64,000 bases of DNA, from positions 12,524 to 76,523 of the forward strand of contig JAFQQW010000051.1 of NCBI GenBank assembly GCA_017410375.1, read 5' to 3'. A program made the translations under genes and the position numbers. Below the pieces are notes generated by a model. The model did no database searches. It saw nothing but the letters and a program-made list of their open reading frames with translations, and was not told where the DNA came from. Positions 7,460 to 52,406 of the stretch are shown piece by piece. The DNA is from Clostridia bacterium (GTDB lineage Bacteria; Bacillota; Clostridia; RGIG6154). Every line of letters begins with the position of its first letter. Position 1 is the stretch's first letter.

Positions 7460-7513
7460 TCACCCTCTTCCTTTCTGTAACCAGTATAACAGATTCAAAC
7501 ATTTCTTGCAATA

Positions 7514-7549
7514 AAAAAACAGACATTTTTGAAAGAAAATGTCTGTTTT
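7514..7549 (-). terminator. Rho-independent terminator after the esterase gene
   Basis: AAACAGACATTTTtgaaagAAAATGTCTGTTT with a T-run on the minus strand (A-run 7514-7519 on +), 8 nt downstream of the stop at 7557. Confidence 0.65.
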
Positions 7550-7556
7550 ACCATAT

Positions 7557-8555: not shown

Positions 8556-8660
8556 AATTCCAAAACAACCTCCTTTAACAAATATTCGCTTCATATTAGC
8601 ACATTTTTCACGCCTTGTCAAGTAAAAAGGAATACCCGGAAACGGCTATTCCTTGTTTAT

Positions 8661-9533: not shown

Positions 9534-9545
9534 AGTTAACTCTCC

Positions 9546-12426: not shown

Positions 12427-12441
12427 AATTTTCCCTCCGTT

Positions 12442-17115: not shown

Positions 17116-19155
17116 ATGTGGTATTCGGATTCGTACAGACGGCATTTGTGTGATATGCACATTGAGGATTGGAATGAGCAGTTTTTATCAGCGTTTTCCA
17201 TTGAAGATTATGTGCAAAACTTAAAAACCGCAAACATTCAGAACGCAATGATTTACCTGCAGTCGCATGTGGGCTTGTGTAACTTCCCCACCAAAACGGG
17301 ACATATGCACAAGGCGTTCATCGGAAACGAAGATAAGATTAAACGTCTGATTGATTTGTGTCATAAGAACAATATTTTAGTGACCGGCTATTACAGCTTA
17401 AATTACAACACAATCGAGCACGATATGCACCCCGACTGGCAGATGAAAACCCTTTCGGGCAAGTCACAGCGCGAGGGTGGAATGTCAGACGGTGAAACGC
17501 TCGACTTTGCATCTGTACGAAAAACCAGATACGGTTTTTGCTGTCCCAACAACCCCGATTACAGAAATTTTGTGTATGCACAGATAAAGGATATGACCGA
17601 TTATTTTGATTGCGAGGGCTATTTCTTTGATATGCCCTTTTGGCCGCACACCTGCTATTGTGACAAGTGTAAGCAACGCTGGGCAAAAGAATTCGGTGGC
17701 GACATACCTGTAAAACCGAAAAACGGAACTGATGATTTTTACAGACTTGTAGAAGCTAAAAACAGATGGATGGGTGAATGGATACAGTCGGTAACCGATT
17801 GTGTGAAAAAGATAGATTCATCCCTTTCTGTAGAGCATAATTTTGCTTCTGCCATTGCTGCAGACTACTATTCCGGATGTACAGAGCCCGTAAATGAAGC
17901 CAGCGATTTTGTGGGCGGTGATTTGTACGGTGGTATTTTAAACCATTCCCTTGCCTGCAAATTTTATAAAAACATCACAAAAAATCAGCCCTTTGATTAT
18001 ATGTTTTCAAGATGTAAGCCCGCGCTTCAGTCCCACACACTTACCAAATCCTCTGACGAGATGAAAACAGAGGTTATGCTAACTGCCGCACATCACGGTG
18101 CAACCATGGTGATTGACGCAATCGACCCGATTGGTACCCTTGATAAACGCGTATACGAACGCATTGGCGAAGTTTTTGCATTTCAGAAAATGTACGAGCC
18201 GTATTTTAAAGGCGAAATGTTGGAAGATATTGGCCTTTATTACAGCTTAAAAAGCAATTTTATATTCAGGGATGAGCCATTTACTTCCAAAACCGCCTGC
18301 ATAAACGCCTCCAAATTTATGATAGAGCATCATATTCCCTTTGGCGTCACAGGTCCTTATCATTCTCTTGACAAGTACAAAACCGTCATTTTGCCTTTGC
18401 TTGCCAAATCTGAACAAAATGACAACGAGCGAATTATAGATTATGTAAAAAACGGTGGAAAAGTCTTTTTAAGCGGCGCAGACAACCCTACGCTGATTGA
18501 GGCGCTTTTGGACTGCAAGATACAGGGCAGAACAGATGAGATAAACATTTATATTGCTCCCGAGCAAGGCTGTGAAGACTTGTTTTACGGATTCAACCAA
18601 AAGTATCCGCTACCCTTTTCGGGAAGCGCGCCTATCCTGCAATTAAAAGACAATTGCGAAATTCTGGCAAAAATCACACTGCCCTACACAAAGCCTTCCG
18701 AGAATCGCTTTGCTTCCATTCACTCCGACCCTCCGGGCATACCAACAGACTTCCCGGCAGTTGTTTTAAAAACTTACGGCAAGGGTGAAATTCTCTGGTC
18801 TGCCGTTAATTTGGAGAGTATGGGATTTTATGAATACGGCGAAATTTTCATGAATTTGCTGAAAAAATTAACAGATTTTGAGGCATTATCCTTTAAAAGC
18901 AATGCGCCCGAGGATGTGGAAATCACCGTTTTTGAAAACGGTGACGAAATGACCGTAAATACCGTTCTTGTAAACGAAAAAACGGTTGCCCCCATCATTT
19001 CTCCCTTTGAAATTCGGGTAAAGACGGCTCAAGAGCCAAAATCCGTGACCCTACTCCCCGAAAATGAAAGCATAAACTTTCGCTTTGAAAACGGATACAC
19101 CGTTTTCAACACACGAGAACTTAAAATCTTTGATATGTATCGTATTCAAAAGTAA
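17116..19155 (+). CDS. Putative glycoside hydrolase (GHL6-like TIM barrel + GATase1-like/beta-galactosidase-trimerisation-like domain)
   Basis: The N-terminus WYSDSYRRHLCDMHIEDW resembles GHL6-type proteins. A CYCDKCKQRW motif is present. The C-terminal half (KTVILPLL... VKNGGKVFLSG) looks like a GH42-type trimerisation domain. Assignment by memory only. Confidence 0.5.
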   Translation: MWYSDSYRRHLCDMHIEDWNEQFLSAFSIEDYVQNLKTANIQNAMIYLQSHVGLCNFPTKTGHMHKAFIGNEDKIKRLIDLCHKNNILVTGYYSLNYNTIEHDMHPDWQMKTLSGKSQREGGMSDGETLDFASVRKTRYGFCCPNNPDYRNFVYAQIKDMTDYFDCEGYFFDMPFWPHTCYCDKCKQRWAKEFGGDIPVKPKNGTDDFYRLVEAKNRWMGEWIQSVTDCVKKIDSSLSVEHNFASAIAADYYSGCTEPVNEASDFVGGDLYGGILNHSLACKFYKNITKNQPFDYMFSRCKPALQSHTLTKSSDEMKTEVMLTAAHHGATMVIDAIDPIGTLDKRVYERIGEVFAFQKMYEPYFKGEMLEDIGLYYSLKSNFIFRDEPFTSKTACINASKFMIEHHIPFGVTGPYHSLDKYKTVILPLLAKSEQNDNERIIDYVKNGGKVFLSGADNPTLIEALLDCKIQGRTDEINIYIAPEQGCEDLFYGFNQKYPLPFSGSAPILQLKDNCEILAKITLPYTKPSENRFASIHSDPPGIPTDFPAVVLKTYGKGEILWSAVNLESMGFYEYGEIFMNLLKKLTDFEALSFKSNAPEDVEITVFENGDEMTVNTVLVNEKTVAPIISPFEIRVKTAQEPKSVTLLPENESINFRFENGYTVFNTRELKIFDMYRIQK

Positions 19156-19308: not shown

Positions 19309-19523
19309 TAATGGTATAATAATTGCGCCCACAGAAAAAACACTTCGTGTTTTACATTTATGCAATTATTGTACCACGGAGTGATGAAGCAAGCCGACTG
19401 CGGCTTGCACTTATGGTATAATAATTGCGCCCACAGAAAAAAACACTTCGTGTTTTATATGTATGCAATTATTGTACCACGGAGTGATGAAGCAAGCCGA
19501 CTGCGGCTTGCACTTATGGTACA
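19309..19523 (+). repeat. Tandem 102/103-bp repeat (2 full units + start of a third), each unit a nested-hairpin structure
   Basis: Units are 19309-19410 and 19411-19513 and differ by one extra A and two substitutions. Each holds a 14-bp stem GGTATAATAATTGC/GCAATTATTGTACC (19313-19326 with 19362-19375), an inner hairpin AAAACACttcGTGTTTT and a second hairpin GCAAGCCGactgCGGCTTGC. Each unit begins with TGgTATAAT. Confidence 0.85.
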
Positions 19524-19557
19524 AAATATTTAAAAAACAGAAATGGAGTGTTTTGAC

Positions 19558-22320
19558 ATGCAGTATCAATCCTTTTTGTTAAACGGTAATTGGGAGATGA
19601 GCTATCAACGCAAGGCATACCAAGGAATGGAAAACCCCTGGAATGTGTCAGATATGGCACTTTCTTCCAAAACAGCATTTGTCAGCAACGCAATACCCGG
19701 CTATTGGGAGGATATGACCGAAATTTTCACATCTTTACCTTTTGCGAATGACATTAAAATCAATCCGGAATTTGGCGGTCAAAGATACCCAATGACCGGT
19801 CGCTGTCCCGATATGGCGCTTCCAAATGTAATGGGTAATTTCTTTTATCGGCGTACCTTTGATTTTAAGCCCTCAGACGGAGAAAAAACACTGTTTTTTG
19901 AAGGCGTACAAAACACGGTGATGGTCTGGTTAAATGATGCATATATCGGCAGACACGAGGGCTACAGCACGCCCTTTGAACTGCCCGTTCCCGAAAACGC
20001 ACTGAAGAACGGCGAAAATACGGTGGTGCTTTCTGTGTCTAACGATCGCCTTGCAGGGTATGGCGGTTATCCCGTTTCAGGTTTGACTTCCCGTGCCGCC
20101 AACGAATATACCGGCGGTATTACCGGAAAAGTAGAACTTAGAGTTTACGAATCACCTTTACGGGATGTGGTAATTAAAGTTTCCGAAGATGTCAAAACCG
20201 TTTCGGTGGAGGTTATTGCAACCCAAAAAGCACCCATTACCTGGAAAATCCGGGATGGCGAAACTGTATTAAAAAGCGGAAGTGCTACGGGTAATTTTTT
20301 GTTTGATACAAAGGGACTTGCGTGTTGGAGTCCCGAAAATCCGAAGCTCTACACACTTATTGCAGAATGCGAAAAGGGATATATTGAGCGAAAGTTCGGT
20401 GTACGGAAGTTGATTGCCGACGGACCGCATTTTAGTTTGAACGGCTATCCTTATTACTTAAGAGGTATTTGTGAGCATTGTTATTTCCCCGAAACCATAC
20501 ATCCCGCACATGATTTGAAGTATTATCGCAGTATCATCAGGCATATCAAAAAGCTTGGCTTTAATTTTATCCGTTTTCACACCTATATTCCGGAAGAGGA
20601 ATATATGCAGGCAGCGGATGAATTGGGTGTTTTGGTGCATGTGGAAAGCCCGGGCAACACAACACTTGCTGAATGGGCAGAGATTGTACGGTTTTGTCGC
20701 CGACACCCTTCGGTAGTGATTTACTGTTGCGGCAACGAGTTACAGATGGATGACGCCTTTATTGGCCACTTGGAAAAGTGTGCTGCTGAAGTGCATGCGC
20801 AAACAGATGCTTTATTCTCACCCATCAGTGCACTCCGGGGATTAGAATATAATTTTATTGAGCCGGAGCAGGAGCAACACTTAAAGCACGAACCTTTTAA
20901 GCATCATCCGCCGCGGTTTAAGCGGACGAGTGGCTTTTGTGATTTGTATTCCAGCTACGCCGGCGGAGATCACAGCTATACTTCGATAAAATGTGACCCT
21001 GCCGCAGAGGATGCGAAAAGTGTAGTTTATCACCACAAGCCCAGAGTCAGCCATGAAATCTGCATTGACGGTACATACACAGATTTAAGCTTAAAGGACA
21101 GATACAAAGGAACAAGAGTGGGTCGAACAGAAATGTTTTCCTCCATTGAAGAACATCTTGCCGAAAAAGGGCTGTTAAAAAACGCGCCACTGTATTTTAA
21201 GAATTCTTGTGAATGGCAACGACGTGTCAGAAAATACTGCTTTGAAGCGGTACGGCGCAGTGAATATATTGCAGGCTATGATTTTTTAGGCCCCATTGAT
21301 ACCCATTGGCACACTTTTGGTTATGATGTGGGTATGATGAACGAATTTTACGAGTTAAAACCCGGGGAGTCGGTTCGCAATGTACGTATGTACAATTCCG
21401 AAACCATTTTGCTGACCGATCTGGCAAGGAAGAGAAATTTCAAGTCGGGTGAAATACTGTCCTGTAAAATTCTTTGCTCGTCCTATCACAAAGCAGTTCT
21501 AAAAAATGCTGTACTGGATATCCGACTCACCTTAAATGGGGATGTGATCGAAAGACAACAGGCTGTAATTGAAGAAATCCAAAACGGAAAAGTGTCGGAA
21601 ATTTATCATTTGAAAATGACTCTGCCGACTGTACAAACGCCCGGTGCCATAGAGCTTTGCGTTGCTTTGAACGGAGATGTGCTTTATACTGAAAACGAAT
21701 GGGAGCTTTATCTGTTCCCCGAGCATATAATTTCAGAACGAGATATTCTGGTATCAAGCGGTATGACAGAACAAGAACTGATTGCGGCACTGCGGGCAGG
21801 CAAGGATGTTCTGCTTCTTGGTGCAGACCCCTTTGCAAGTCTGCCGTGCACCTTTAAAATAGCGCTTGCAGGGCGTTGTGCAGGTAATCTTGCAACGGTC
21901 ATAAACGACCATCCTGCCATAGGCGATATTCCGCATGAGGGCTTTTGCGGGTGGCAGTTTGCCGAGCTTTTTGAGGGTGGCAGGGCGGTTTGCTTTGAAG
22001 ATAAGAGCCTGCCTTTCCATCCCATTATAGAGGTTGTGTCCACCCATAAATGTGTCATTCGTCAGGCAGCACTTTTTGAATTTGCGGCGTTTGACGGAAG
22101 ATGTGTGGTTTGTTCCTTTAAGTTTGACTCAAAGGATCCGGCGGCAAATTATTTAAAAGCACAACTTATAAATTATATGCAAAGCAAAGCTTTTACCCCC
22201 ACCGATGTTCTGTCCGAAGAACAATTGGGGGCACTCGTTCATCAAGAAGTGACAAATGTTTCGGGAAACACAAACTTTGCAGTAAATCCAAACGACAAAA
22301 CGGCTGTCCGGAATAAATAA
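19558..22320 (+). CDS. GH2-family glycosidase (beta-galactosidase/glucuronidase-like), no signal peptide
   Basis: The N-terminal sugar-binding-domain block (FFYRRTFDF... LFFEGVQNTVMVWLNDAYIGRHEGYSTPFE) and the TIM-barrel block (GFNFIRFHTY... VIYCCGNE with the N-E acid/base) are GH2-like. Start moved to ATG 19558 (GGAG 9 nt upstream). Confidence 0.8.
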   Translation: MQYQSFLLNGNWEMSYQRKAYQGMENPWNVSDMALSSKTAFVSNAIPGYWEDMTEIFTSLPFANDIKINPEFGGQRYPMTGRCPDMALPNVMGNFFYRRTFDFKPSDGEKTLFFEGVQNTVMVWLNDAYIGRHEGYSTPFELPVPENALKNGENTVVLSVSNDRLAGYGGYPVSGLTSRAANEYTGGITGKVELRVYESPLRDVVIKVSEDVKTVSVEVIATQKAPITWKIRDGETVLKSGSATGNFLFDTKGLACWSPENPKLYTLIAECEKGYIERKFGVRKLIADGPHFSLNGYPYYLRGICEHCYFPETIHPAHDLKYYRSIIRHIKKLGFNFIRFHTYIPEEEYMQAADELGVLVHVESPGNTTLAEWAEIVRFCRRHPSVVIYCCGNELQMDDAFIGHLEKCAAEVHAQTDALFSPISALRGLEYNFIEPEQEQHLKHEPFKHHPPRFKRTSGFCDLYSSYAGGDHSYTSIKCDPAAEDAKSVVYHHKPRVSHEICIDGTYTDLSLKDRYKGTRVGRTEMFSSIEEHLAEKGLLKNAPLYFKNSCEWQRRVRKYCFEAVRRSEYIAGYDFLGPIDTHWHTFGYDVGMMNEFYELKPGESVRNVRMYNSETILLTDLARKRNFKSGEILSCKILCSSYHKAVLKNAVLDIRLTLNGDVIERQQAVIEEIQNGKVSEIYHLKMTLPTVQTPGAIELCVALNGDVLYTENEWELYLFPEHIISERDILVSSGMTEQELIAALRAGKDVLLLGADPFASLPCTFKIALAGRCAGNLATVINDHPAIGDIPHEGFCGWQFAELFEGGRAVCFEDKSLPFHPIIEVVSTHKCVIRQAALFEFAAFDGRCVVCSFKFDSKDPAANYLKAQLINYMQSKAFTPTDVLSEEQLGALVHQEVTNVSGNTNFAVNPNDKTAVRNK

Positions 22321-41785: not shown

Positions 41786-41918
41786 TAAAGTTCCCATGCT
41801 GTTGCTACCTTATATTATCACTTGTCTTTATGTTTGATACAAAGAGTCTGCGCACTTCGATTCTTAGCATTTTTTCTTTTTTTGTAATGAACATATCTCC
41901 ATAAATTTAAAGGTACAG

Positions 41919-42106
41919 CCCATAAGTTTCACGATTACTGTTAAACTTTCACGATTTGAATATAAAAAAATAACCGCCACCCAAAATTTAGCTCTCGGAT
42001 GGCGGTGTTTTTGTGTGTAAAATTATAACGAAAAGCCCGAAAAAGGCTTAAATAAAGGCAAAAATAAAAGGACAACAATTCTATCAAAACTGTTGTCCTT
42101 ATGTGG
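41919..42106 (+). repeat. Composite intergenic repeat, copy A (2 iteron-like units + two terminator hairpins)
   Basis: TTTCACGATT motifs at 41927 and 41947. Hairpin ACCGCCAcCC...GGaTGGCGGT + TTTTT (41973-42012). Hairpin AAGGACAACA...TGTTGTCCTT (42068-42100) has TTTTATTTTT on the minus strand. Roughly 85-90% identical by eye to copies B and C. Confidence 0.85.
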
Positions 42107-42200
42107 ATAAAGACCACAACTTTAATAGAAAGTTTCATCTTTGAACCACAAGGTTTCATTTTAAAGTCAATGATAAATTTCAATATGAAAATTAAAGAAA

Positions 42201-44114
42201 TTACAGATGGCGGTTTAAATACATTTCGAGTGTATTTCTACAGTAACTTGTTTCAGCGCAAACCATATCAATTATTTTTTCCGACTGTTTGACATAAGCA
42301 CGAAACTTTTCTTTCAAAGCAGGAACTTTTTCCTTTTCACCGCTGTATGCGGCAATGTATGCATCTGCAAGAATATCGGTAAGCATTGCATGGACAGCTA
42401 AATATTGCCATTCCTTTGACAAGTCCCGGTACCGTTTAATATATTTTTCGGAAAAATCCTTTATAACAGCTTTAACTTTTTTGCAACGTCCTACATATTC
42501 TTCTTTCTCAAAAAGATGAACCTGACCGCGAATAAAATTCGGACAGAAAAGCGCAGAAATTTCCGCAAGATATTGCGAAACCGCATCTGCATTATCCTGA
42601 AAAGCGGCTGTAAAATATTCATTCTTGACATCTTCAAAGCTTTTGCTCTTATTCCACAAAGCCGATGCCATACAATATTGGGGCAAGCCTGTCGGAAAAG
42701 CAGAACGAAGCAGTTGACAACTTACCATACCGTCAAGATTCAATTTTTCCAATGCAACCATATCTCTGTGCATAAGTTCTGCCACGTTATAGTATCCCGG
42801 ATCTGCGTGGTGGTCCCACATCAGATGATAATCAAAATCAAAAGCTTCGCCATTGTAGTGCTTTTGCCACTCTTTCAAATACGAAATGTTTATAGCGGTG
42901 CCGCATCTGTTAAACTCTTTGTTGCGTATATAAGGCGGAATTTTCGGCAAATTATCCAAATCAATTTCATCATAAAATTCAGAATACCAACGATTAATCG
43001 GTGCAAACATAAGCGTAAATCTGTCGGGATTTTTAAATTTTTCCTTTTCAGGTGCAAACAACAAATCCACATATATCAGAAAAACAATTTTGGTATCAAT
43101 GCCTGCTAAGCTCAGCTTTTCATCCAGCATATTGAGCATATCCACATAATAGTCAGAGGGTCTTTTTTCAGCACATTTCTCACACTCACACTGATTAAGC
43201 GCCTCGTCTGCCAGCCAGAAATGCAAATAATCTACCGCTGGATGATTTTTACAGTACTCTACCACAGCATCCGTCATTTTATTTTGCACATATGGGTTGG
43301 AATAGCAAAGATTTGTGTTTTTCGGCACTCCGCCGAAAAATTCTCTTTTTCCATTTCTCAACGCAAGAATGTTTTTAACACTTTCATCTATCTCGCCCTC
43401 AAATTTCTCCCAGCCTGAATCATCAATGCCGAAAGGTGCACAATTCCATCCGTGTCCTACCGCATGATAAACAAGACCTCTTGTTTCTATTTCGCACAAA
43501 AGCGAGTCAATCATCGCATCAATGTCCCGGTTTGGAATTTCATTGCCGAAGTCACGGTCTTTGCTATCTTTATAAAACTTTTCATAATACTTTCGGAAGA
43601 AAATGCCGGGAGTGGAAAACTGTGTGAAGAAAGCACTCATTCCCACTTTAGGAAGCCAGTCAATGGTATTAAAAACATGCTCATACCCAACCGCTCCTTC
43701 AATACAAATACCTCTGTGATTATAGCTTGGTGTTTCTTGTACGTCTGCTGAAACATCTGCATAATCAAGTGTCCGTTTTGGAATTTTTTCACCGTCTGTG
43801 CCGGGATAAAGATATCTGCATCCCATCTCGTACATAAACCGATATGCCGCAATAAGAACACTTCGTTCATTTGCACCGGTTATTATACCTGCACCATTTT
43901 TGACTCTGATAAAAATGCCGTCTTTCTTTTGGTCATATTTCATAGAGCCGTCAAGCCCTACCCAAAGTGCATTTTTAACCGATTCATTCTTTTCGGGATA
44001 TTTTCTGACATCCAAAACAAGCGAGTTGTCCATTGTTTTAATCAGACGCATAATTTCTTTTACGGCAAATCTTATCGTTTGGTTATCCCCGATTTGTGCC
44101 AATATCAATCGCAT
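42201..44114 (-). CDS. DUF4838-like putative glycoside hydrolase, paralog B
   Basis: 637 aa. It starts MRLILAQIGDNQT (paralog A: MRLILAQIGTNQT) and has HRGICIEGAVGYEHV and a CECEKCAEK motif. GGAGGA SD. Confidence 0.6.
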   Translation of the reverse strand: MRLILAQIGDNQTIRFAVKEIMRLIKTMDNSLVLDVRKYPEKNESVKNALWVGLDGSMKYDQKKDGIFIRVKNGAGIITGANERSVLIAAYRFMYEMGCRYLYPGTDGEKIPKRTLDYADVSADVQETPSYNHRGICIEGAVGYEHVFNTIDWLPKVGMSAFFTQFSTPGIFFRKYYEKFYKDSKDRDFGNEIPNRDIDAMIDSLLCEIETRGLVYHAVGHGWNCAPFGIDDSGWEKFEGEIDESVKNILALRNGKREFFGGVPKNTNLCYSNPYVQNKMTDAVVEYCKNHPAVDYLHFWLADEALNQCECEKCAEKRPSDYYVDMLNMLDEKLSLAGIDTKIVFLIYVDLLFAPEKEKFKNPDRFTLMFAPINRWYSEFYDEIDLDNLPKIPPYIRNKEFNRCGTAINISYLKEWQKHYNGEAFDFDYHLMWDHHADPGYYNVAELMHRDMVALEKLNLDGMVSCQLLRSAFPTGLPQYCMASALWNKSKSFEDVKNEYFTAAFQDNADAVSQYLAEISALFCPNFIRGQVHLFEKEEYVGRCKKVKAVIKDFSEKYIKRYRDLSKEWQYLAVHAMLTDILADAYIAAYSGEKEKVPALKEKFRAYVKQSEKIIDMVCAETSYCRNTLEMYLNRHL

Positions 44115-44130
44115 ATCTATTCCTCCACTA

Positions 44131-44436
44131 TTAAGACTTAAATATATATAATGCCGTTTCGTAAGCTTTTAATTGTAACGAAACCTCTCTTCCCGTTCCG
44201 CTTTCTGAAGTGCCTGCTTTTTTCCAGGCTTTTTCTTCGCCGAAATCCAAAGTTCCCGAAAACCCTTTATCATTTGCAATCACGGCAAGAAAACGGTTGT
44301 CGCCATATAAGATGTACTCTGCATCACAGTAAATATGACACCCTGCTTCTGCTGCAATTTCTTTCAAATCGGCAACAGAAAGAAACGGAATGGTATTCAT
44401 AATAATTGTTCTGTCTTTTTCTTTTCTTTGTGCCAA
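44131..44436 (-). CDS. Small hypothetical protein (about 90-101 aa)
   Basis: The ORF fills the 16-nt/8-nt gaps between two operon genes. The start is uncertain (TTG 44436 or ATG 44400; neither has a well-spaced SD). No family recognised. Confidence 0.4.
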   Translation of the reverse strand: MAQRKEKDRTIIMNTIPFLSVADLKEIAAEAGCHIYCDAEYILYGDNRFLAVIANDKGFSGTLDFGEEKAWKKAGTSESGTGREVSLQLKAYETALYIFKS

Positions 44437-44444
44437 TGTCCCCT

Positions 44445-45917
44445 TTACAAACTTTTGGTAGATACAAGATACATCATATTCCGAAGGTCATTTATAAGCC
44501 AAATCCATCTGCCTTTTACCTCCTTGGGAGTGTGGCTTAACGAGCGCAGAATTTCATCTGCCTGATTAAAATATTCCTCCAACAATGCCATTTTTCGGCT
44601 TTCATCATAAGTAAGTGCCTTTTCTCTGAAATTCGGGTCATCTGTCAGTTTTTCAAGCGGCTGACGGGAAAGGGGCATAGCCTTCACCCGTTCACCCAAC
44701 ATAAGCATACGACCCTTGATATACAAATTTCGCCAGCACAAAGCCATTCCCGTACCACCATACAACGGATCAAGGGTTCCGGCATAAAATTTGTCTATGG
44801 ACAAATTAAGATTTACTTTTCCCAATCCGCAAGCCTCTTCAAATGCCAGATAATTTGCTTCGTTGGGCGGTGCAAGAAAAGATTCTTCCCCGAATATGCT
44901 TACACCGTTTACATTGTGTTTTCTTGCTTCTGTAACCAACTGCCATATAAGCTCCACACCCCAATCGGCAGACCCGAGTATAGAATACTGACTGCCTGCG
45001 TGTACACGCAAAATGTTATCGGCTTTTGGGGTATAAATATTCTCCGTCCAACAATCTGTTGCATAATCGCCGATTGCTCTGTCGCCTGCCCACTGCAAAA
45101 TGGCATCATCCGGCAAGGCAGACAACAGTTTTCGATCTTCATCGGGCATCGATTGCCAGTTGCCGTCAACATATCCACCTTTAGGATAAGCAAATCCCGA
45201 ATAGGTTTCGCAAATCACCCACGCATCCGCCTTTTTCTTTTTGGATACATCAACTGCAACACGATAAGTATTTATCATATCCTCTACAGAATAATCCCGT
45301 TTTACATTTCTGTTTTTTCTGCGCTCTTCACAAAGCGGACAATGACAAACGCTGTAGTCACCCACTTCTACCTGAATACCGTCAACATCAATCTCATCAT
45401 AGAGCCACCCCAATGCCTCTTTAAACCATTCTAAATTTTCAGGTCTTGAAGGACACGCGAGAATGTTCATAGGCCCGAAAGGATAAGGATTTCCATTTTC
45501 ATCCACAGATTTATATTCCGGATGTTCCGTCAGCCATGTATTTAAAGAATATGGATGCGAACCAAATTTTCTGTCAATTCCGAGTGAAGCTTCTTCGGAA
45601 GGATCATAAAAAACACCTCCATAACTGAACGCACTTACCCCCGGCATAATTCTGACATTCTTTTTTCTGCCGTATTTTACAAGCTCCTTTAATTGGTTCA
45701 AACCGTCATTATGTGCGCGGAGTGCACCCCAGATCACAATTCCGTTGAAATGATGCGCACTTGCATAGTCCACCATTCGTTTGTAATCGCTTAAAAACGC
45801 CTCTCTTCTGAAATTTTTACCTGAGCAACCCATAATCTTGCTTTCAACAGATATATCCCAGTTCGAGCCTAAGTCCCATGTCCAAAGCACACGATATTTT
45901 GGTGTATTCACATTCAT
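44445..45917 (-). CDS. Putative glycoside-hydrolase-like TIM-barrel protein (family unassigned)
   Basis: 490 aa with an alternating beta/alpha pattern and a CHCPLCEERRKN motif, as in the other CxCxxC proteins of this locus. AGGAGGA abuts ATG 45917, so GTG 45911 may be the real start. Confidence 0.55.
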   Translation of the reverse strand: MNVNTPKYRVLWTWDLGSNWDISVESKIMGCSGKNFRREAFLSDYKRMVDYASAHHFNGIVIWGALRAHNDGLNQLKELVKYGRKKNVRIMPGVSAFSYGGVFYDPSEEASLGIDRKFGSHPYSLNTWLTEHPEYKSVDENGNPYPFGPMNILACPSRPENLEWFKEALGWLYDEIDVDGIQVEVGDYSVCHCPLCEERRKNRNVKRDYSVEDMINTYRVAVDVSKKKKADAWVICETYSGFAYPKGGYVDGNWQSMPDEDRKLLSALPDDAILQWAGDRAIGDYATDCWTENIYTPKADNILRVHAGSQYSILGSADWGVELIWQLVTEARKHNVNGVSIFGEESFLAPPNEANYLAFEEACGLGKVNLNLSIDKFYAGTLDPLYGGTGMALCWRNLYIKGRMLMLGERVKAMPLSRQPLEKLTDDPNFREKALTYDESRKMALLEEYFNQADEILRSLSHTPKEVKGRWIWLINDLRNMMYLVSTKSL

Positions 45918-46016
45918 TCCTCCTACAACAACACTTTTACGAGCAGCATTTTTATTTTATTATATTTACATTTCCATCTTAGTTCCTTGATAATTTTGAT
46001 TTATTGTAGCACAATT

Positions 46017-46069
46017 TTGACTTTTCTTTTTCTGTTTCCGTTGACTTTTCTTTTTGGATATTATATAAT
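46017..46069 (+). promoter_or_regulatory. Consensus promoter of the AraC gene, with a 15-bp direct repeat
   Basis: TTGACT (46041-46046), 17 nt, TATAAT (46064-46069). TTGACTTTTCTTTTT occurs twice (46017-46031 and 46041-46055). Confidence 0.55.
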
Positions 46070-46111
46070 AGCATCAACAAAGTATTCACCACTACATGAC
46101 AGGAGTTAAAC

Positions 46112-46942
46112 ATGAATCCTTTAACGCAATACGAAAAAAGTAATTTCCAAAAACAAAATTCCCCAATCCTTTTTAGTATTTGGCAAGAAAGAGGTTATTT
46201 CAGTGCGCATTGGCATGAACACACCGAAATTCTTTTTTTTAAGACTAACGGCTATAAAGTCACTGTAAACGGAACTACCTACGAAACCCAAAAAGGCGAT
46301 ATGCTGCTCATTAACGGCTATGAGCCTCATTCCTCGGTACGCCTGGAGGATGAAACCATTTTTTACGTACTCCGAATCAATACTTCCTTTTTAGCTGATG
46401 CCTCCTTTCAGAATTATTCCTTTCCCACACGCATACAAGGTGATCACGTCATTCGGGACTATTTTGACAAGTTGTGCGAGGAAAGCACACTGCAAGAGCC
46501 CGGGTATGAACTGGAATTAAAAGGAATCACTTACAGGCTTTTGTGCCACTTACTCAGAAACTATAAATCAGGGCAATTATCCCCAGAAGAGATTTCCCTG
46601 AAACAAAATAAATTGCGGAAAATTAACAGCATTTTAGAGTACATCGCCGCCCACTATTCCAATCCGCTTACCACCGCCGATCTGGCAAAGCAGTTTCATT
46701 TGAATGAGCAGTATTTTTGCCGCTATTTTAAAAAGGAAACGGGTCAGTCGGTCACCGGCTACATCAATCAGTATCGCTCGGAAATAGCCGCATCATTTTT
46801 AAAGGAATCCGATTACAGCATTACCGAAATTGCACTATTGGTCGGTTTTACCGATTCCAACTATTTCGCCAGAATTTTCAAAAAATATACCGGAGTTTCC
46901 CCGAGAGAGTATAAAAAAACACTTGGCATTCATTTAATTTAA
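46112..46942 (+). CDS. AraC-family regulator
   Basis: Cupin-like N-terminus (HWHEHTEILFFKTNG) and C-terminal AraC HTH (NYFARIFKKYTGVSPREY). Confidence 0.85.
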   Translation: MNPLTQYEKSNFQKQNSPILFSIWQERGYFSAHWHEHTEILFFKTNGYKVTVNGTTYETQKGDMLLINGYEPHSSVRLEDETIFYVLRINTSFLADASFQNYSFPTRIQGDHVIRDYFDKLCEESTLQEPGYELELKGITYRLLCHLLRNYKSGQLSPEEISLKQNKLRKINSILEYIAAHYSNPLTTADLAKQFHLNEQYFCRYFKKETGQSVTGYINQYRSEIAASFLKESDYSITEIALLVGFTDSNYFARIFKKYTGVSPREYKKTLGIHLI

Positions 46943-46992
46943 AATCGGTCATTTATTAATAGCGACAGCACATAAAAAGCATCTACCTACTC

Positions 46993-47232
46993 AAAAATTT
47001 GACGATTATATAAAAATTTCACGACTACCCCATAAGTTTCACGATTACTGCAAAGTTTTCACGAATATTATAAAATTTCACGATTTGTTTATAAAAAATA
47101 ACCGCTACCCGGAATTTTACGCTCGGATAGCGGTGTTTTTGTATGTAAAATTATAATGAGAAGCCAGAAAAAGGCTTAAATAAAGGCAAAAATAAAAGGA
47201 CAACATCTCACAAAATTGTTGTCCTTATGTGG
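46993..47232 (+). repeat. Composite intergenic repeat, copy B (5 iteron-like units + two terminator hairpins)
   Basis: TT(T/G)(C/A)ACGA cores begin at 46999, 47018, 47038, 47058 and 47077 (spacing 19-20 bp). Hairpin ACCGCTA...TAGCGGT (47101-47134) + TTTTT. Hairpin AAGGACAACA...TGTTGTCCTT ends at about 47226. Confidence 0.85.
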
Positions 47233-47372
47233 GGCACGGTGACTCTGCGTTTCGCATTTCTTCGGGCGACCTCGTCGCCGGCGAAGAAATTTGTTCACTC
47301 GAGACACGACAGTCCATCAGTTTGGTATTTTTCAAAAATGTTATCAGCAACATATATGCTACATAACGCATC

Positions 47373-48350
47373 CTATCTAGTGCGTGAGCGATCGGCACTA
47401 CTCCATTCATTATAAATCTTCTCTGCAGGGCGCCCCTTTATCGGCCACCGACGGTCACCGAAGGGACGGTCGACCTGCTCGTCCCACTTCCACCAATAAA
47501 GACCGTACCACCAAGGCTCGCTTTCAAACATTTCAATAAACATTGCAAGATAATCGGCCTGCTCTTCGGGCGGAAGATTGCTTCCAAATTCTCCGAAGAG
47601 AATGGGCTTTTCATATATTTCGGCAACTCTTCTGAAACGGTGGAGCTGCGGAAGGAAATCTTCCTTTCTTTCCTCTTTTGTGAGACCGAGAATAGCGGCA
47701 GAATGATAGCAAGAAAGGGAAAGAAAATCCAAATCGTAAAACCAATGGTTTTTATCGTTTAAAACTTTTTCATAATCTATTATTCCCGTATGGGTAGTGT
47801 GGCAGGAGGTAACGGGTCCGCTGTAAACGGCACGCACCTTTTCTATCAGATTTTTCCAATAGTCGTTATAGTCAACAAGACGGTCAAGCTCACTGTCAAT
47901 ACAGTATATCTCGGCACCAGTTTTTTCTGCAATTTTTGCATAATAAACGGCGCGCTCGGTCATAGACGTAAACCAATCGGAAAGCTCGGTACGGATAAGA
48001 CCGGGTATACGTTTTCCCGTGTGATCCGCTTTCGGGAACCATATACCAAGTCTACCGGAGCCGTCAAGAGTTTCTAACATAGGACGTAGCTGAACCTTAA
48101 GTCCTAAACTATGCAAGTAGTCTATCATTTCCATAACTTCCAAATCTGAGGGTGTCATAACAAAATCCTTAAACTGCTTTACCGAATAGGTATGTTCCTG
48201 ATATACAGTCACAACAAGCACCACCCAATCGGCACCCGATTCCTTTATGGCTCTCGCTTCAGCCTTAGCTTCCTCGGTAGAAAACCAACCATTTTTTGCA
48301 CGAAATCCGAAAGTAACCCCAAGATGCCAGTTGCTAAATATATTATTCAT
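47373..48350 (-). CDS. Clan GH-A-like TIM-barrel glycoside hydrolase (GH113/GH5-like), small
   Basis: 325 aa. GADWVVLVV, IDSELD and FGEFGS blocks fit an acid/base Glu and a nucleophile Glu on strands 4 and 7. AAAGGAG SD. Confidence 0.5.
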   Translation of the reverse strand: MNNIFSNWHLGVTFGFRAKNGWFSTEEAKAEARAIKESGADWVVLVVTVYQEHTYSVKQFKDFVMTPSDLEVMEMIDYLHSLGLKVQLRPMLETLDGSGRLGIWFPKADHTGKRIPGLIRTELSDWFTSMTERAVYYAKIAEKTGAEIYCIDSELDRLVDYNDYWKNLIEKVRAVYSGPVTSCHTTHTGIIDYEKVLNDKNHWFYDLDFLSLSCYHSAAILGLTKEERKEDFLPQLHRFRRVAEIYEKPILFGEFGSNLPPEEQADYLAMFIEMFESEPWWYGLYWWKWDEQVDRPFGDRRWPIKGRPAEKIYNEWSSADRSRTR

Positions 48351-48503
48351 TTCACTTCTCCTTTGTTTTTTTATTTCATTATAGCTTCAATATAAATTTT
48401 ATCATACATATCAATTACCGGAACATCATATTCTTCCAGGATGTGATTTCAAAGGTGTACACGCCACCCTCGGGGATGCAGGAAGAAATATAAACAAATG
48501 TAT

Positions 48504-49445
48504 TCACGCTTCAAGTCCCTCCAGTAAGCCTTTTAAATAGCCAATGGCATACAATCTGCCCAACGCTGTATAGCCGTCTCCGTCTGTTTCGCCTGCCATA
48601 GCAGGAACATGATCTACACGGATGGGGACATTTATACCAAGACTTTGATAGAGTTTTAAAATTTTACCCATTTCAATTTCTCCGTTATCGTGGAATGTTT
48701 CACGAAAGCAGGTTTTGTTCCCTGTGGTATTTCTGAAATGGATAAAGAAAATTTTGTCACGAAGTTTTGGAATGATGTCATATAAATCTTCGCCCATCAT
48801 CAGGTAGGTTGCCTGACACATGGTAACACCAAGGTTTTTACTATCAACTATGTTGATAGCTTTTTTTATATTTTCATAATTTATCATTATTCGTTCAACC
48901 GTTCCTAACTTTTCCAATGGCGGATCATCAGGATGTAAGGCAAGCTTTATATTGAATTTTTCAGCATATGGAATTGCAGCTTTTATAAAGTATTCATAGT
49001 TATTCCATAATTCTGTTGCAGTTATTTTTTTGTCAACTTCTTTAAAGTCACTCAAATCAAATCCGGTAACCAAAGCACCACCGCGTTCTTCGATGCTATC
49101 CGACGTCCTCAGCCATCCAATATGTGCCATCCAGTTAAAGCAAATGGTGCGAATGTCGAGCTTGTCCATATACTCAAACATTTTAATTACTTTTTCAATG
49201 CATGCATCACGATATTCATCGCCAATTTTGATGTGGTCATGTAATTCATTGGGCATTGGCTCTATAACAATTGGTTTTATCCCAAAATCGACAAAATCCT
49301 TATATACCTTTTCCCAATGCGAAAAATCTGAAATATCAAATTCTGTGTCCTCAGGCAAGCGGATAACACCGTGTTCTACGCCGCACTGTTTTGCATAGTC
49401 CCATGTCATATCGTGACTGCTCTTAAAGTAATCTGTTAAAATCAT
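48504..49445 (-). CDS. Mannonate-dehydratase (UxuA)-family protein
   Basis: ICFNWMAHIGWLRT resembles the UxuA block CYNFMPV.DWTRT. The layout is xylose-isomerase-like TIM barrel. 313 aa and AT-rich. Confidence 0.55.
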   Translation of the reverse strand: MILTDYFKSSHDMTWDYAKQCGVEHGVIRLPEDTEFDISDFSHWEKVYKDFVDFGIKPIVIEPMPNELHDHIKIGDEYRDACIEKVIKMFEYMDKLDIRTICFNWMAHIGWLRTSDSIEERGGALVTGFDLSDFKEVDKKITATELWNNYEYFIKAAIPYAEKFNIKLALHPDDPPLEKLGTVERIMINYENIKKAINIVDSKNLGVTMCQATYLMMGEDLYDIIPKLRDKIFFIHFRNTTGNKTCFRETFHDNGEIEMGKILKLYQSLGINVPIRVDHVPAMAGETDGDGYTALGRLYAIGYLKGLLEGLEA

Positions 49446-49457
49446 AATTAAACCTCA

Positions 49458-51110
49458 TTACATAATCTTAAAAATTGTTCCGTATAATAAATTTTCAAAT
49501 TTTACTTTTTCGTCACCAACACTTATTTTTGTGCTGTCATCTTCCCAAATCTTAAATTCTTTTATGCTTGTGCCATTAAAAGAGATTTCTTTTTCTTTTA
49601 TTACAGTTGTACTCTTAAAGTCCCTTAACACTTTTTGCCAGCAATCCGACTTGTTTCTGATAAATCCAAGACTTACAGTCTTACCTTTTAAAATAAATAT
49701 ATATGCTTCATCATCAGAAAAATCTATACTTTCAAACTCTTCATTCTGAAAATCAATTTCCGAAACCATATCTGCAAGGGGTTTGAAATATTTATATAAA
49801 TTTTTCGATTCCACATATCTTTGGTCCCAATGCCATATATGTCCGCATGACGCACTCCCCAAAAAAACCGGGGTATAAACACAATCCACAAATATAATTC
49901 CTCTGTCATCACATGAGTAATATTTAAACTCGCCACTATGATTGTTATTGACAGCACCCGTTTCTGCCACTATAAATGGCATGGTGTCATCTTTAATCAT
50001 CTTCATTCCTTCTTGTATTACTTCAACGGGATGTCTTGTAGTATCAATATATTTTCCACCCTGGTCAAGATATCGATGCATCTGCTTAAAATCACATTTC
50101 CCCCACGGGAACTCATTATACACATCAAGAGTTTCCTCACAGTCTAAACTTCCGTTTGAATTTACAACTAAGTGGTCAGGAAAAAGCTTCTTAACCTTCG
50201 GAAGCATTTCTTCATTCCATTTTATAATATTTCCACTTTCTTCTCCCATGGCATTCATCTCATTCCAAAGCTCAATCGCAAAAATTACGGTATCTCCCGC
50301 ATATCTTTTTGCATATTCCTCCACTTTTTTAAGCCATTCTTTTTTCCACTTATCTTCTGTGAGCCATTCTTTTGCAGAAGAGCATTTTTCACCATTTAAA
50401 TAGAAATTTTTATTAAACATTTCGAAAATATAACTATTTTCTGATTTGTCGTAGTAAAACCATCTGAACTGCTCCAATGTGATTTTCAATTTAATCCGGT
50501 ATTTTTTTGCCATCTCTACAATCATGTCAAGCTTGGCAAACTGTTCCCACTTATACTCATCGGCATTTTGGGTATCAGGTGAAAAATATGGATGTCCTAC
50601 CCATATTCTTACAAGATTAACACCGTTTTCCGCACATTTTTTAAACCAACGCTCGTATTGTCGTAATCCCATATAATTAAACTTACCACTAAGACCAAAC
50701 TCTTTCCCATTTGACACTCCGCAAGCCCTTGGAAATGCCAGGTTTACACCAATAGGATAAAAATCTTTTCCGGATGAATAGGAAAAATATCGTCTGTCCT
50801 TCTTGCTGACTTCGATATACCCATCATCAATATTCTCTTCTGCAACAAATTCTTCATTTTTGCTCTCTCCGGATTCAAAAGTTATCTGCAAAATATATTT
50901 GCCTTTACTTTTTAGCGTAAATCTTATTTTATGACAAATGTCTCCCTCCGGATAAAGATGTTCAATTCCCTCGTTATCATATTCAATTCGCACAGGTTGA
51001 TATTCATACGAAAAAAGTTCTATCACTTTTTTATTTTCATCAACAAGATAAATACTTTTAGGTTTTTCTTTCAATTCCCTTTCGATTCTTTCATAGCATT
51101 TAATTTTCAT
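49458..51110 (-). CDS. GH5-like (clan GH-A) glycoside hydrolase
   Basis: VNLVRIWVGHPYF and the acid/base block FAIELWNEMN. Start placed at the second ATG (51110) for SD spacing. Very AT-rich codon usage. Confidence 0.6.
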   Translation of the reverse strand: MKIKCYERIERELKEKPKSIYLVDENKKVIELFSYEYQPVRIEYDNEGIEHLYPEGDICHKIRFTLKSKGKYILQITFESGESKNEEFVAEENIDDGYIEVSKKDRRYFSYSSGKDFYPIGVNLAFPRACGVSNGKEFGLSGKFNYMGLRQYERWFKKCAENGVNLVRIWVGHPYFSPDTQNADEYKWEQFAKLDMIVEMAKKYRIKLKITLEQFRWFYYDKSENSYIFEMFNKNFYLNGEKCSSAKEWLTEDKWKKEWLKKVEEYAKRYAGDTVIFAIELWNEMNAMGEESGNIIKWNEEMLPKVKKLFPDHLVVNSNGSLDCEETLDVYNEFPWGKCDFKQMHRYLDQGGKYIDTTRHPVEVIQEGMKMIKDDTMPFIVAETGAVNNNHSGEFKYYSCDDRGIIFVDCVYTPVFLGSASCGHIWHWDQRYVESKNLYKYFKPLADMVSEIDFQNEEFESIDFSDDEAYIFILKGKTVSLGFIRNKSDCWQKVLRDFKSTTVIKEKEISFNGTSIKEFKIWEDDSTKISVGDEKVKFENLLYGTIFKIM

Positions 51111-51168
51111 ATTCATACCTTCTTTTCTTTTTTTTCAGTGTAACATCAAAAAAAATCCATGTCAAGAA

Positions 51169-51185
51169 ATTTCATATTATGAAAT
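51169..51185. promoter_or_regulatory. 17-bp palindrome, candidate IclR operator
   Basis: ATTTCATAtTATGAAAT (8-1-8 perfect inverted repeat) lies immediately upstream of the -35 of the IclR promoter, in the divergent intergenic region. Confidence 0.4.
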
Positions 51186-51186
51186 A

Positions 51187-51215
51187 TTGAACTTTGAAAC
51201 AATTTGTGATATAAT
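51187..51215 (+). promoter_or_regulatory. Promoter of the IclR gene
   Basis: TTGAAC (51187-51192), 17 nt, TGaTATAAT (TATAAT 51210-51215). AGGAGAG SD before ATG 51237. Confidence 0.55.
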
Positions 51216-51236
51216 TGGTGTCAGGAGAGTGATAGC

Positions 51237-52004
51237 ATGATAGGTTCTGTACAAAAAGCAGTAAAGATTCTCAATACAATTTCCGAAGAGAAAAACAGAC
51301 CGGTTTCTCTTTTGCATATAAACAAGATTACGGGAATCAACAAATCAACCTGCTCACACATAATATCCACACTTGAATCAGAAGGCTTTGTTAAAAAGAT
51401 TTCTCACTCAAAGGGTTATGTACTTGGCCCTGCAGCATATTGTCTTTCGAGACATGGAAGGTATGAAAATGAATTTGTATCCACATGCCACCCATTGATA
51501 AACTGGCTCCATAAAAAAACAGGATATTCTGTAATTCTTGCTGTAATTGAAGGAGGTCAGAAATATACAATAGATTATATTGAGACCGAAAAAATACTTC
51601 CAGAATCTTCAGAGATTATGCCCGACGACATATATCGCACCGCAACAGGCAGAATTATAATGGCAAATATGAATAAGGATGATATAAAAAGAGTTTTTGA
51701 AAAAAACGGAATTCCGCCTGAAGGACACTGGGATGAAGTTACATCCTTTGATACATTGAATGCTGAACTTTCGGAGATTGATAAAAACGGTATCGTACAG
51801 ACACACAATGCAAGAAATGATGGCAAAATTACACTTGGTTATGCTGCCGCCGTTTTCAGATATACCAAATGCGTAGGTGCAATCGGCATTGCTGTTTTAT
51901 GCACAAGAGAAGAGTATGATCATTTTGAGGAAAAAGAAAAGCTTATAAAGCAGAATATTATAAAAGCAAGAACAGAAATAGGCAGACGCCTTAAATATTC
52001 ATAG
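51237..52004 (+). CDS. IclR-family transcriptional regulator
   Basis: N-terminal winged HTH (VQKAVKILNTISEE...INKITGINKSTCSHIISTLESEGFVKK) and a C-terminal effector-binding domain. 255 aa. Confidence 0.8.
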   Translation: MIGSVQKAVKILNTISEEKNRPVSLLHINKITGINKSTCSHIISTLESEGFVKKISHSKGYVLGPAAYCLSRHGRYENEFVSTCHPLINWLHKKTGYSVILAVIEGGQKYTIDYIETEKILPESSEIMPDDIYRTATGRIIMANMNKDDIKRVFEKNGIPPEGHWDEVTSFDTLNAELSEIDKNGIVQTHNARNDGKITLGYAAAVFRYTKCVGAIGIAVLCTREEYDHFEEKEKLIKQNIIKARTEIGRRLKYS

Positions 52005-52182
52005 GCGAAGATGGTGTAAAATAAATTCAAAGCCATTTTAAAATTACTCCCTTTGCATCTTTTTTACCTTTACAATCAATATTGTGTCCACAACCCGGAA
52101 TTCAAACTTTTAGTATGTCCATAGATTAGGATTCACACTTTTAAAGTGTCCATTTTATAGGGTACATTTTATCACGTTTATT

Positions 52183-52406
52183 CAAAAATTTAACGATTAC
52201 CCCACAAGTTTCACGATTACTATAAAAGTTTCACGATTACTGTTAAAATTTCACGATTTGTTTATAAAAAAATAACCGCTACCCGAAAATTTGATCTCGG
52301 ATAGCGGTGTTTTTATATGTGAAAATATAACGAAAAACCTAGGAATGGCTTAAATAAAGGCAAAAATAAAAGGACAACATCTCACAAAATTGTTGTCCTT
52401 ATGTGT
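52183..52406 (+). repeat. Composite intergenic repeat, copy C (4 in-phase iteron-like units + degenerate ones upstream + two terminator hairpins)
   Basis: TT(A/C)ACGA cores begin at 52190, 52210, 52230 and 52250 (exact 20-bp phase). Degenerate TTCAAAC/TTCACAC/ATCACGT cores lie at 52101, 52132 and 52171. Hairpin ACCGCTA...TAGCGGT (52275-52308) + TTTT. The second hairpin ends at about 52400. Confidence 0.85.

Follow-up and report, generated by a model that had tools for sequence, protein, structure and literature searches.

What can head-to-tail arrays of short direct repeats do in a chromosome, where they lie at the 3′ ends of regulator genes? The question is raised by a 64,000-nucleotide (nt) stretch of DNA from a Clostridia bacterium (RGIG6154; GenBank assembly GCA_017410375.1, contig JAFQQW010000051.1, positions 12,524 to 76,523 of the forward strand), which we call the window. 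It contains three arrays of 19–20-base-pair (bp) units with the core TTTCACGATTAC, all on the plus strand, with two, five and four to five units in the copies that we call A, B and C, respectively. Each array is the 5′ module of a composite of ca. 230–330 bp, and it is established that lineages share this composite, its core being constant while spacers and stems are free to change, and that it is linked to the 3′ ends of transfer RNA (tRNA) and transfer-messenger RNA (tmRNA) genes and to the edges of variable gene blocks. As to function, we tentatively read the arrays as the iteron-like, putative protein-binding module of a junction element resembling an attachment site (att) or an origin (ori); judged from sequence features, this may well be correct, though we stop short of calling it probable.

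Array A (41927–41958) consists of two 20-bp units, with TTTCACGATT at 41927 and 41947, the first of the gamma type and the second a terminal omega unit (TTTCACGATTAC / TTTCACGATTTG). Array B (46979–47087) begins with a leader, CATCTACCTACTCAAAAA, followed by TTTnACGAnT at 46998, 47017, 47037, 47057 and 47076 (alpha, beta, gamma, delta and omega units; spacings 19, 20, 20 and 19). Array C (52170–52260) opens with a degenerate unit at about 52170 and continues with beta, gamma, gamma and omega units at 52189, 52209, 52229 and 52249 (spacings 19, 20, 20 and 20). These positions lie 1 nt below those given in a first-pass annotation of the window, whose description of arrays of 2, 5 and 4+ units at 19–20 bp is otherwise the one that we obtain; its unit consensus, AAA(A/G)TTTCACGATTAC followed by three to four variable nucleotides, likewise emerges from the unit alignment.

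Tandem Repeats Finder reports period-20 arrays at 46994–47085 and 52183–52269. The motif TTTCACGATT, with at most one mismatch, occurs 20 times in the window versus 9.65 ± 2.9 times in shuffled sequences; 13 of these occurrences fall within the three arrays, the other seven being at chance level. A chance origin of the arrays is ruled out by these two results. The annotation's view that the arrays are non-random, variable in copy number and unlike ordinary operators thus stands. The unit types alpha, beta, gamma and omega are common to the copies by position, and about 16 of 20 positions are kept while three to four vary; it follows that the units are old and the core constrained. The arrays themselves are predicted to be unstructured (folding z about 0), which favours a role at the DNA level. 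The annotation had also placed all units in helical phase on one DNA face. Since B-DNA has 10.5 bp per turn, 19–20 bp correspond to about 1.8–1.9 turns, so neighbouring units share a face only roughly, and the ends of a five-unit array point to nearly opposite faces; the claim therefore holds approximately for adjacent units and fails for the ends of the longest array.

Alignment of the three copies gives the order of the composite: the array, hairpin 1, a degenerate inverted unit, a mini-hairpin AGCC..GGCT, the linker AAATAAAGGCAAAAATAAAAGG, which is invariant across copies A, B and C, hairpin 3 (GGACAACA..TGTTGTCC) and a boundary, ATGTG. Hairpin 1 has the form AACCGCYACCC...GGATRGCGGT, with an A-run upstream and a T-run downstream, and where copy A has a C:G pair, B and C have T:A, which is a compensatory change. 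Strong folding is predicted for the hairpins on either strand (z −3 to −7). A GC-containing stem followed by a T-run, as in intrinsic terminators, is found in hairpin 1 on both strands and in hairpin 3 on the minus strand.

A conserved family at tRNA and tmRNA 3′ ends

The family was searched for with a pattern of two cores, CACGATTAC N10-13 CACGATTAC, to which members with other cores are invisible. It matched at least 120 genome loci and 22 viral loci, and a related pattern matched four metagenome loci. Within these matches, a homologous subset is recognised by features outside the query pattern. At least 15 loci have a common layout; they come from Clostridia, Christensenellales, Acutalibacteraceae, Eubacteriales, a Desulfocucumaceae metagenome-assembled genome (MAG), RF39-type Bacilli and two IMG/VR contigs. 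The order that they share is the array, a strong bidirectional terminator, one inverted unit (GTAATCGTGTGCRAGAAG), a small hairpin, GGGGTGCAAAAGAA, a loop hairpin with AT(T/C)GTATC(A/C)AAAT, and ATGGTG; in at least 15 loci the arrays are accompanied by the inverted unit GTAATCGTGTG along with the G box and loop motif. Described from its left end, the full-form element has a left block with TGTCCA motifs, 2–11 head-to-tail units at 19–22 bp with the core (TTT)CACGATTAC, and on the 3′ side a GGGGTGCAAAA box followed by a hairpin of variable stem, whose plus-strand loop reads AT(T/C)GTATC(A/C)AAAT or ATTCTATCAAAAC.

What is kept and what is free in this family differ sharply. Spacers differ wholly by lineage, being AT-rich in the window, GGGCAC in loci L058, L108 and L135, and CCCATCTCGCA in L078, L137 and L143, while the core CACGATTAC is constant. 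Conservation of the core, and not of the spacers, across distant lineages is as expected for a protein-binding iteron. The loop hairpins behave similarly: in 13 of them, mean pairwise stem identity is 0.31, and all pair over 6–12 bp around the same loop. In L058, which has 10–11 units with GC-rich spacers, a terminator hairpin, a mini-hairpin GCCCGAAAGCCC and a loop hairpin that directly abuts a tRNA-Leu gene, the 13-nt loop ATTCTATCAAAAC is identical to that of copy A and the stems are completely different. The left block of copy C recurs in two loci from other species, L143 and L106 (TGTCCAC.AACC.GG; AAAGTGTCCA.TTT.T.GGGTACATTTTA). A box GGGGTGCA is tandemly repeated in L188 (560–700) and L173, three times at about 21 bp (GTGGGGTGCATTT), which suggests a second kind of protein-binding repeat in the same element family.

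The position of the element is equally specific. Its loop hairpin abuts the 3′ end of tRNA-Leu genes (three loci, three anticodons), of tRNA-Pro, tRNA-Tyr, tRNA-Asn and tmRNA genes, and of a 58-nt 3′ fragment of tRNA-Leu. In many genomes a convergent tRNA or tmRNA gene supplies the boundary with its CCA end, and copies away from tRNA genes keep ATGGTA or ATGTG there. Location at a tRNA or tmRNA 3′ end, a property of att sites, is thus found in the homologues; the window has no tRNA gene, and its composites keep only the ATGTG remnant. Genes on the array side in Clostridia encode GH2 (glycoside hydrolase (GH) family 2), a phage tail protein, a serine recombinase, GNAT, fumarase, and HNH and WYL proteins. 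In Bacilli and Mollicutes they are arsR-cadA, a type I restriction–modification system, AAA_14/DUF4143 ATPases, an SNF2 helicase, Fic and a Schlafen-like protein. These two groups have a simpler form of the element: after the terminator of a housekeeping gene (pfkA, rsmH) come GTTCAACC, four units TTTACACGATTACCYAACY and accessory genes. Two MAGs, one of Bacillales and one of Acholeplasmataceae (L064 and L083), share an identical four-unit array together with arsR and a gene for a cadA-type P-type ATPase, so either recent horizontal transfer or a binning artefact has to be assumed.

Recombination genes near the element are isolated cases: a serine recombinase beside L106, and an unrelated integrative mobilisable element beside L058. 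The latter lies beyond the abutting tRNA-Leu gene, at 7405–11260, where genes for a tyrosine integrase and a Mob_Pre relaxase, together with 48 nt from the 3′ end of another tRNA, identify it as inserted in the neighbouring tRNA gene.

The window lies on a 247-kb scaffold of an animal-gut metagenome; its uncultured species is not among GTDB representatives, its nearest relatives there being 64–73% identical over a NagA-like protein. Apart from terminators matched by chance, exact scans for a 28-mer and a 21-mer of the window linker and for the hairpin-3 stem found nothing. No plasmid or phage record matched the element by blastn, and in the literature its motifs occur only as unrelated primers. 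Rfam 15 gave no match at gathering score in the window; in 13 homologous loci it matched only tRNA, tmRNA and a cobalamin riboswitch, none of them inside the element.

Several scan hits were set aside. Hits in Niastella, Gemmatimonadota and Ignavibacteria are heptad microsatellites, others are 12-bp microsatellites, and the arrays of Undibacterium, Acidimicrobiales, Saccharofermentans and Prevotella are unrelated repeats. In one MAG of Candidatus Prevotella equi (at least 20 loci, L066–L174) there is a dispersed repeat of 22-bp period with GTAATCGTTG and CACGATTAC half-sites and the end AGAGCCCC; it shares the 9-mer with the Firmicutes element and none of its other features. Locus L056, from a Joint Genome Institute metagenome, is a 21-bp satellite (GATTTCACGATTACAACACTA) repeated about 105 times over 2.2 kb; it has non-coding, eukaryote-like flanks and probably shares the 12-mer core by coincidence.

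Strain variation and synteny breaks

In sequencing runs that contain the same strain, summed contig depth relative to the flanks was about 3–5x for the arrays, about 8–20x for hairpin 1 and about 10x for hairpin 3; copy numbers derived in this way are rough and are inflated by overlapping unitigs. A fourth array of one or two units with different flanks was seen in the window's strain, and a further hairpin-3 copy in its genome runs into a tRNA T-loop signature (30-nt consensus, 0.8 agreement). Contigs of the same strain carry identical arrays.

Related strains differ. A lineage about 99% identical to the window over 49773–52137 has a rearranged element after the same IclR gene: the array consists of a B-type leader and alpha, beta, gamma and omega units and is 98.6% identical to copy B over 71 nt, hairpin 1 has been deleted between two ATAAC repeats, and hairpin 3 has an A-type loop. 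A 31-bp minisatellite upstream of array C (52103–52170) has two units in the window and three in the about 99%-identical locus L026 (2400–2470), and another strain has only two array units at the IclR locus. The right neighbour of the IclR copy also changes with the strain, being a GH28 gene in the window versus pnuC and phage head genes elsewhere. In L026 (2740–9284), pnuC is followed by a fragment of an AraC-binding domain and a phage-type head module (portal, ClpP protease, capsid and connectors) with no tail genes, which could be a satellite-like or remnant element.

The differences extend to orthologous loci. AraC-276, the regulator that precedes copy B, is missing from related genomes, and the orthologues of AraC-254, DUF4838 and GH28 in a related lineage have ordinary private terminators where the window has the element. 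Identity to the X7 genome is 86–91% left of A, 94–99.8% between A and C, and about 85% right of C. The identity jumps, the absence of AraC-276, the swapped neighbour and the plain terminators together place all three copies at breakpoints and show that the element evolves much faster than its flanks. The element is also absent after more distant IclR orthologues (78–85% identity) and after the closest AraC-276 homologue (70%). The latter (L015) is followed by other private hairpin repeats (AAAAAGTCGGTCTACCGCAAGCA; AACCGCCTGG..CCAGGCGGTT) at 8850–9320 and 12440–12571; lineage-specific terminator repeats seem to be common in these genomes.

The first-pass annotation had held that free variation of array length between near-identical strains, with no phenotype, would point to a neutral minisatellite. 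Array length does differ between near-identical strains; the conservation seen from lineage to lineage speaks against neutrality, and a minisatellite that is purely neutral is poorly supported.

Composites and gene modules in the window

In the window, each composite has a plus-strand regulator gene (AraC-254, AraC-276 and IclR-255 for A, B and C) on one side and, on the other, the 3′ end of an operon of glycoside-hydrolase genes on the minus strand. The three composites have the same orientation and bound two glycan-utilisation modules of about 5.1 kb, each made up of an operon and a divergent regulator. Module A–B (42107–46978) encodes a DUF4838-type glycosidase, a 101-amino-acid (aa) open reading frame and a 490-aa protein on the minus strand and AraC-276 (46112–46942) on the plus strand. 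In module B–C (47238–52075), GH113, a UxuA-like protein and a 552-aa protein are encoded on the minus strand and the IclR-family regulator on the plus strand. The gene content of the window is confined to GH genes, AraC-type regulators and sugar-metabolism genes.

Composite A extends over 41890–42106. A decayed remnant upstream of its array (41895–41926; TCTCCATAAATTTAAAGGTACAG...CCCATAAG) shows homology with the left block of copy C. Hairpin 1 of this copy (41973–42006) has a 14-bp stem (−23.4 kcal/mol, z −6.9) and is terminator-like on both strands; the mini-hairpin AAGCCcgaaaaaGGCTT and the linker occupy 42033–42067. Hairpin 3 (42068–42106, minus strand; AAGGACAACA / loop ATTCTATCAAAAC / TGTTGTCCTT, with the boundary ATGTGG) is the predicted terminator of the minus-strand DUF4838 operon.

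In composite B (46979–47237), the bidirectionally terminator-like hairpin 1 (47101–47134) is followed by the degenerate inverted unit TGTAAAATTATAAT, the mini-hairpin AGCCagaaaaaGGCT and the linker (47144–47195), and by hairpin 3 on the minus strand (47196–47237) with the boundary ATGTGGGGC. The GGGGC of this boundary recurs in another genomic copy, which continues straight into a tRNA-like T-loop sequence. Between hairpin 3 and the GH113 stop codon there is a GC-rich stretch containing hairpins (47241–47316; GACTCTGCG...ATTTCTTCGGGCGACCTCGTCGCCGGCGAAGAAAT), which has no Rfam match. Its depth is 2–3x that of the flank and variants of it follow other hairpin-3 copies, so it represents a second small repeat family.

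Composite C (52076–52406) begins with a left block (52076–52171, plus strand), consisting of TGTGTCCACAACCCGG..., the 31-bp minisatellite (ACTTTTA..TGTCCAT..GGATTCAC) and AAAGTGTCCATTTTATAGGGTACATTTTA. Its hairpin 1 (52275–52308), again terminator-like in both directions, is the one deleted in the related lineage (L026, L027 and L029). The inverted unit GTGAAAATATAAC, mini-hairpin and linker lie at 52319–52369, and hairpin 3 (52370–52406, minus strand), with the boundary ATGTGT, is predicted to terminate the minus-strand GH28 operon.

To judge from their sequence and predicted folding, the composite hairpins probably terminate convergent transcripts. An insulator or roadblock, one of three roles proposed in the first-pass annotation, is retained in this simpler sense, since the composite holds strong predicted bidirectional terminators. 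Elsewhere in the window, a 103-bp unit is repeated 2.1 times with 97% identity at 19311–19521, between a GHL6-type gene (17116–19155) and a GH2 gene (19543–22320), and may be a duplicated promoter or leader region.

Possible functions and comparison with known systems

Among the three roles proposed for the arrays, a recombination or cassette-junction site fits best: the window copies stand at synteny breaks and identity jumps, and the homologues border accessory blocks and the 3′ ends of tRNA or tmRNA genes. If the arrays are the binding module of such a junction element, a sequence-specific DNA-binding protein would bind the direct units head to tail and cooperatively, and the inverted unit as well, giving a bent or looped nucleoprotein complex as at att-type recombination sites or origin-type sites of mobile DNA. 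The element would mark, and probably mediate, junctions of conserved genes with exchangeable gene blocks. The three window copies would then bound two cassettes acquired or exchanged as units, an arrangement that resembles tandem accretion, and unit number would drift via slippage or unequal exchange between copies. A bolder version, conceivable and on the doubtful side, is that the element represents a so far undescribed, Firmicutes-wide class of recombination or cassette-junction site, in which a dedicated protein polymerises on 20-bp units beside a loop-specific hairpin at tRNA or tmRNA 3′ ends. Such a class would serve the capture and tandem accretion of gene cassettes, as an integron does, for multi-gene cassettes and with different machinery; the cassettes would be regulator-plus-operon glycan modules here and defence and resistance genes elsewhere.

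A number of results weigh against the junction element. Integrase, transposase or Rep genes do not recur beside it (Pfam scans of the flanks of more than 25 homologous loci, at most 8–10 kb), and no recombinase, integrase, transposase or Rep was found among the window genes by Pfam scans. A duplicated tRNA 3′ end, expected of an att repeat, was found neither within 8 kb of the tRNA-linked copies nor in one viral contig, a negative that is weak given the length of the flanks. Known arm-type sites and those of Xis proteins or recombination directionality factors (RDF) are fewer and have a 10–11-bp period, and they do not typically form arrays of up to 11 units at a 20–22-bp period. Members of the species may lack one hairpin and carry anything from two to five units, which makes much of the element dispensable. 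Binding of the units by a protein has the standing of a candidate, suggested by their sequence. In addition, two conserved units per locus are built into the core-pair search, and 9-mers shuffled and kept at the same spacing gave 6 and 15 viral hits versus 22 for the real core; hence, most core-pair hits in unrelated phyla are background minisatellites.

These points have to be set beside what other explanations can account for. One of these, unlikely in our estimate though it accounts for the behaviour of the element within the species, takes the composite as a passive mosaic repeat of the BOX or SPRITE type, selfish or hitch-hiking and terminator-bearing, with the array as a slippage minisatellite of the left flank of hairpin 1 and bidirectional termination as the sole function. 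As such a repeat should be, the element is multi-copy, at several times the depth of its flanks, and dispersed and modular, with modules present or absent as in mosaic repeats; its unit number varies with the strain, its outer units are decayed and it is missing at orthologous loci of related species. The strong predicted terminators, the degenerate unit inverted across hairpin 1 and the likeness of the array to a multiplied hairpin flank agree with this, as do the A-B(n)-C logic that BOX shares with the element and the terminator-like nature of SPRITE (PMC3049150). A passive repeat is harder to reconcile with a core retained in lineages whose spacers share nothing, with the persistence across families of the loop and of motifs outside the hairpins (the G box and the left block), with specific placement at tRNA and tmRNA 3′ ends, and with an inverted-repeat scan of the three copies in which only internal hairpins, and no terminal inverted repeats or target duplications, were seen. 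The same layout can be read from the minus strand as a small RNA (sRNA) locus, to which we give a distinctly low probability. Here, the loop TTTTGATAC(A/G)AT would be an extended −10-like element (TGnTAcAAT) driving an RNA of about 110–130 nt that starts about 7 nt after TTTTGATACAAT, comprises a C-rich GCACCCCAC box, a small hairpin and one CACGAUUAC unit, and ends at hairpin 1; the array, lying past that terminator, would serve as a target for regulation or pairing, much as repeats do for an anti-repeat. The minus-strand motif layout is kept in at least nine loci, the stems of the loop hairpins covary, the single unit is inverted relative to the array and copy A retains TGATAGAAT in its loop, all of which suit an RNA. 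Neither the window nor the 13 homologous loci have an Rfam match for it, however; in L106 and L086 the −10-like motif is only 2–4 nt from the C-rich box, which would leave the box untranscribed, and the −10 is degenerate (TGAGAT) in copies B and C. RNA-type runs for L143 also show zero coverage over the expected RNA (3315–3519), while the left block and first units are covered, an observation that carries little weight given an unstranded polyA library of low depth.

Direct iterons, one inverted iteron and hairpins are also the ingredients of a plasmid- or satellite-type replication or transfer origin, working or as a remnant, of integrated elements. The layout fits this idea, as do the left-block motifs, which include a DnaA-box-like TGTCCACA, and the hairpin loop TTTGATAC resembles the CTTGATA nick site of the pC194 type; we take the element to resemble pC194/pMV158 origins and iteron plasmids in these respects. 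The phage- or satellite-like head genes beside the IclR copy in L026 and the Mob_Pre element near L058 point the same way. On the other hand, no locus has an adjacent Rep or relaxase gene, no plasmid or phage matched by blastn, three copies lie within 10 kb of a chromosome-like GH region, and the DnaA-box and nick-site resemblances are short; we regard an origin as improbable. Least probable by far is that the arrays serve as operators, bound either by the AraC or IclR regulators beside them or by a master regulator acting on the glycan genes of the whole locus, which the annotation had also considered. Proteins of the AraC family recognise direct repeats at a period of about 21 bp, and the three arrays do follow regulator genes. 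The arrays are downstream of these genes, though, between convergent genes and behind terminators. A master regulator is contradicted by the absence of the motif from all window promoters and by orthologous regulators without an array in related species (the IclR orthologues of 78–85% identity and the closest AraC-276 homologue), and binding by the neighbouring AraC or IclR proteins by the occurrence of the same element beside tRNA and unrelated genes in other genomes.

Should the junction element be real, a single DNA signature (CACGATTAC arrays, a loop-specific hairpin and the G box) would mark multi-gene cassette exchange in gut Firmicutes, in polysaccharide use, defence and metal resistance. 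It would provide a handle for cassette discovery in metagenomes, its binding or recombination protein could be found through co-occurrence or pull-down, and it would help to explain strain-level variation of glycan-utilisation loci in uncultured rumen and gut Clostridia. On a modest reading, it is still a new, widespread family of conserved non-coding elements.

How does the element compare with systems already described? No Rfam family, plasmid or phage record, or paper matches it, and it is a widely distributed conserved non-coding family. It would work in the manner of iteron- or att-type multi-site regions and resembles mosaic repeats. The marks that define each of the families tested are lacking, however: a Rep gene, terminal inverted repeats and target duplications, and, in the flanks covered, an integrase and a duplicated att. 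Two kinds of transposon end were considered and rejected. The end regions of Tn7-like elements, Mu and Tn5053 have multiple transposase-binding sites, and the element resembles them in its three or four contiguous direct repeats of about 20–22 bp just downstream of a conserved gene or tRNA gene, followed by cargo, as in the Bacilli and Mollicutes form (GTTCAACC and four units); the flanks contain no tnsB/rve, AAA+ or TniQ gene, there is no constant TGT terminus and no second inverted end was seen. The IS21 element beside L107 has its own, different ends.

The repeats of Streptococcus pneumoniae known as BOX (boxA-boxB(n)-boxC) and SPRITE (PMC3049150) are alike in being dispersed, modular intergenic composites with variable tandem sub-units between fixed modules, one terminator-like hairpin module and strain-variable copy number. 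The unit of the window element is 20 bp long versus 45 bp for boxB. It also differs in its low copy number (about four arrays per genome), in having no visible terminal inverted repeats, in the class-spanning core with free spacers and in the linkage to tRNA and tmRNA 3′ ends.

Plasmid iterons and centromeres offer a second parallel. The type II centromere of pSK41, parC, has four 20-bp repeats. Iterons and parC, as we take them to be organised, share with our element head-to-tail repeats of about 20–22 bp with a conserved core in 2–11 copies, and an inverted copy nearby as in Rep operators; tandem direct repeats of 17–22 bp with a conserved core and an inverted partial copy, by which iterons are recognised, are what the composite contains. 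Unlike them, it has no adjacent rep or par gene, is chromosomal and multi-copy, and is unlike any plasmid record.

The att regions of elements that integrate at tRNA or tmRNA genes differ from the element in that it has no adjacent integrase and no att duplication within 8 kb. They resemble it in position, immediately 3′ of a tRNA or tmRNA gene, in being multi-site non-coding regions of 300–450 bp, in direct repeats suited to cooperative binding and bending, and in a tRNA-end-like boundary (ATGGTG / ATGTG). The tandem accretion of genomic islands and cis-mobilisable elements (CIMEs) offers the corresponding likeness at the level of gene blocks, as there, too, copies in the same orientation bound exchangeable cassettes.

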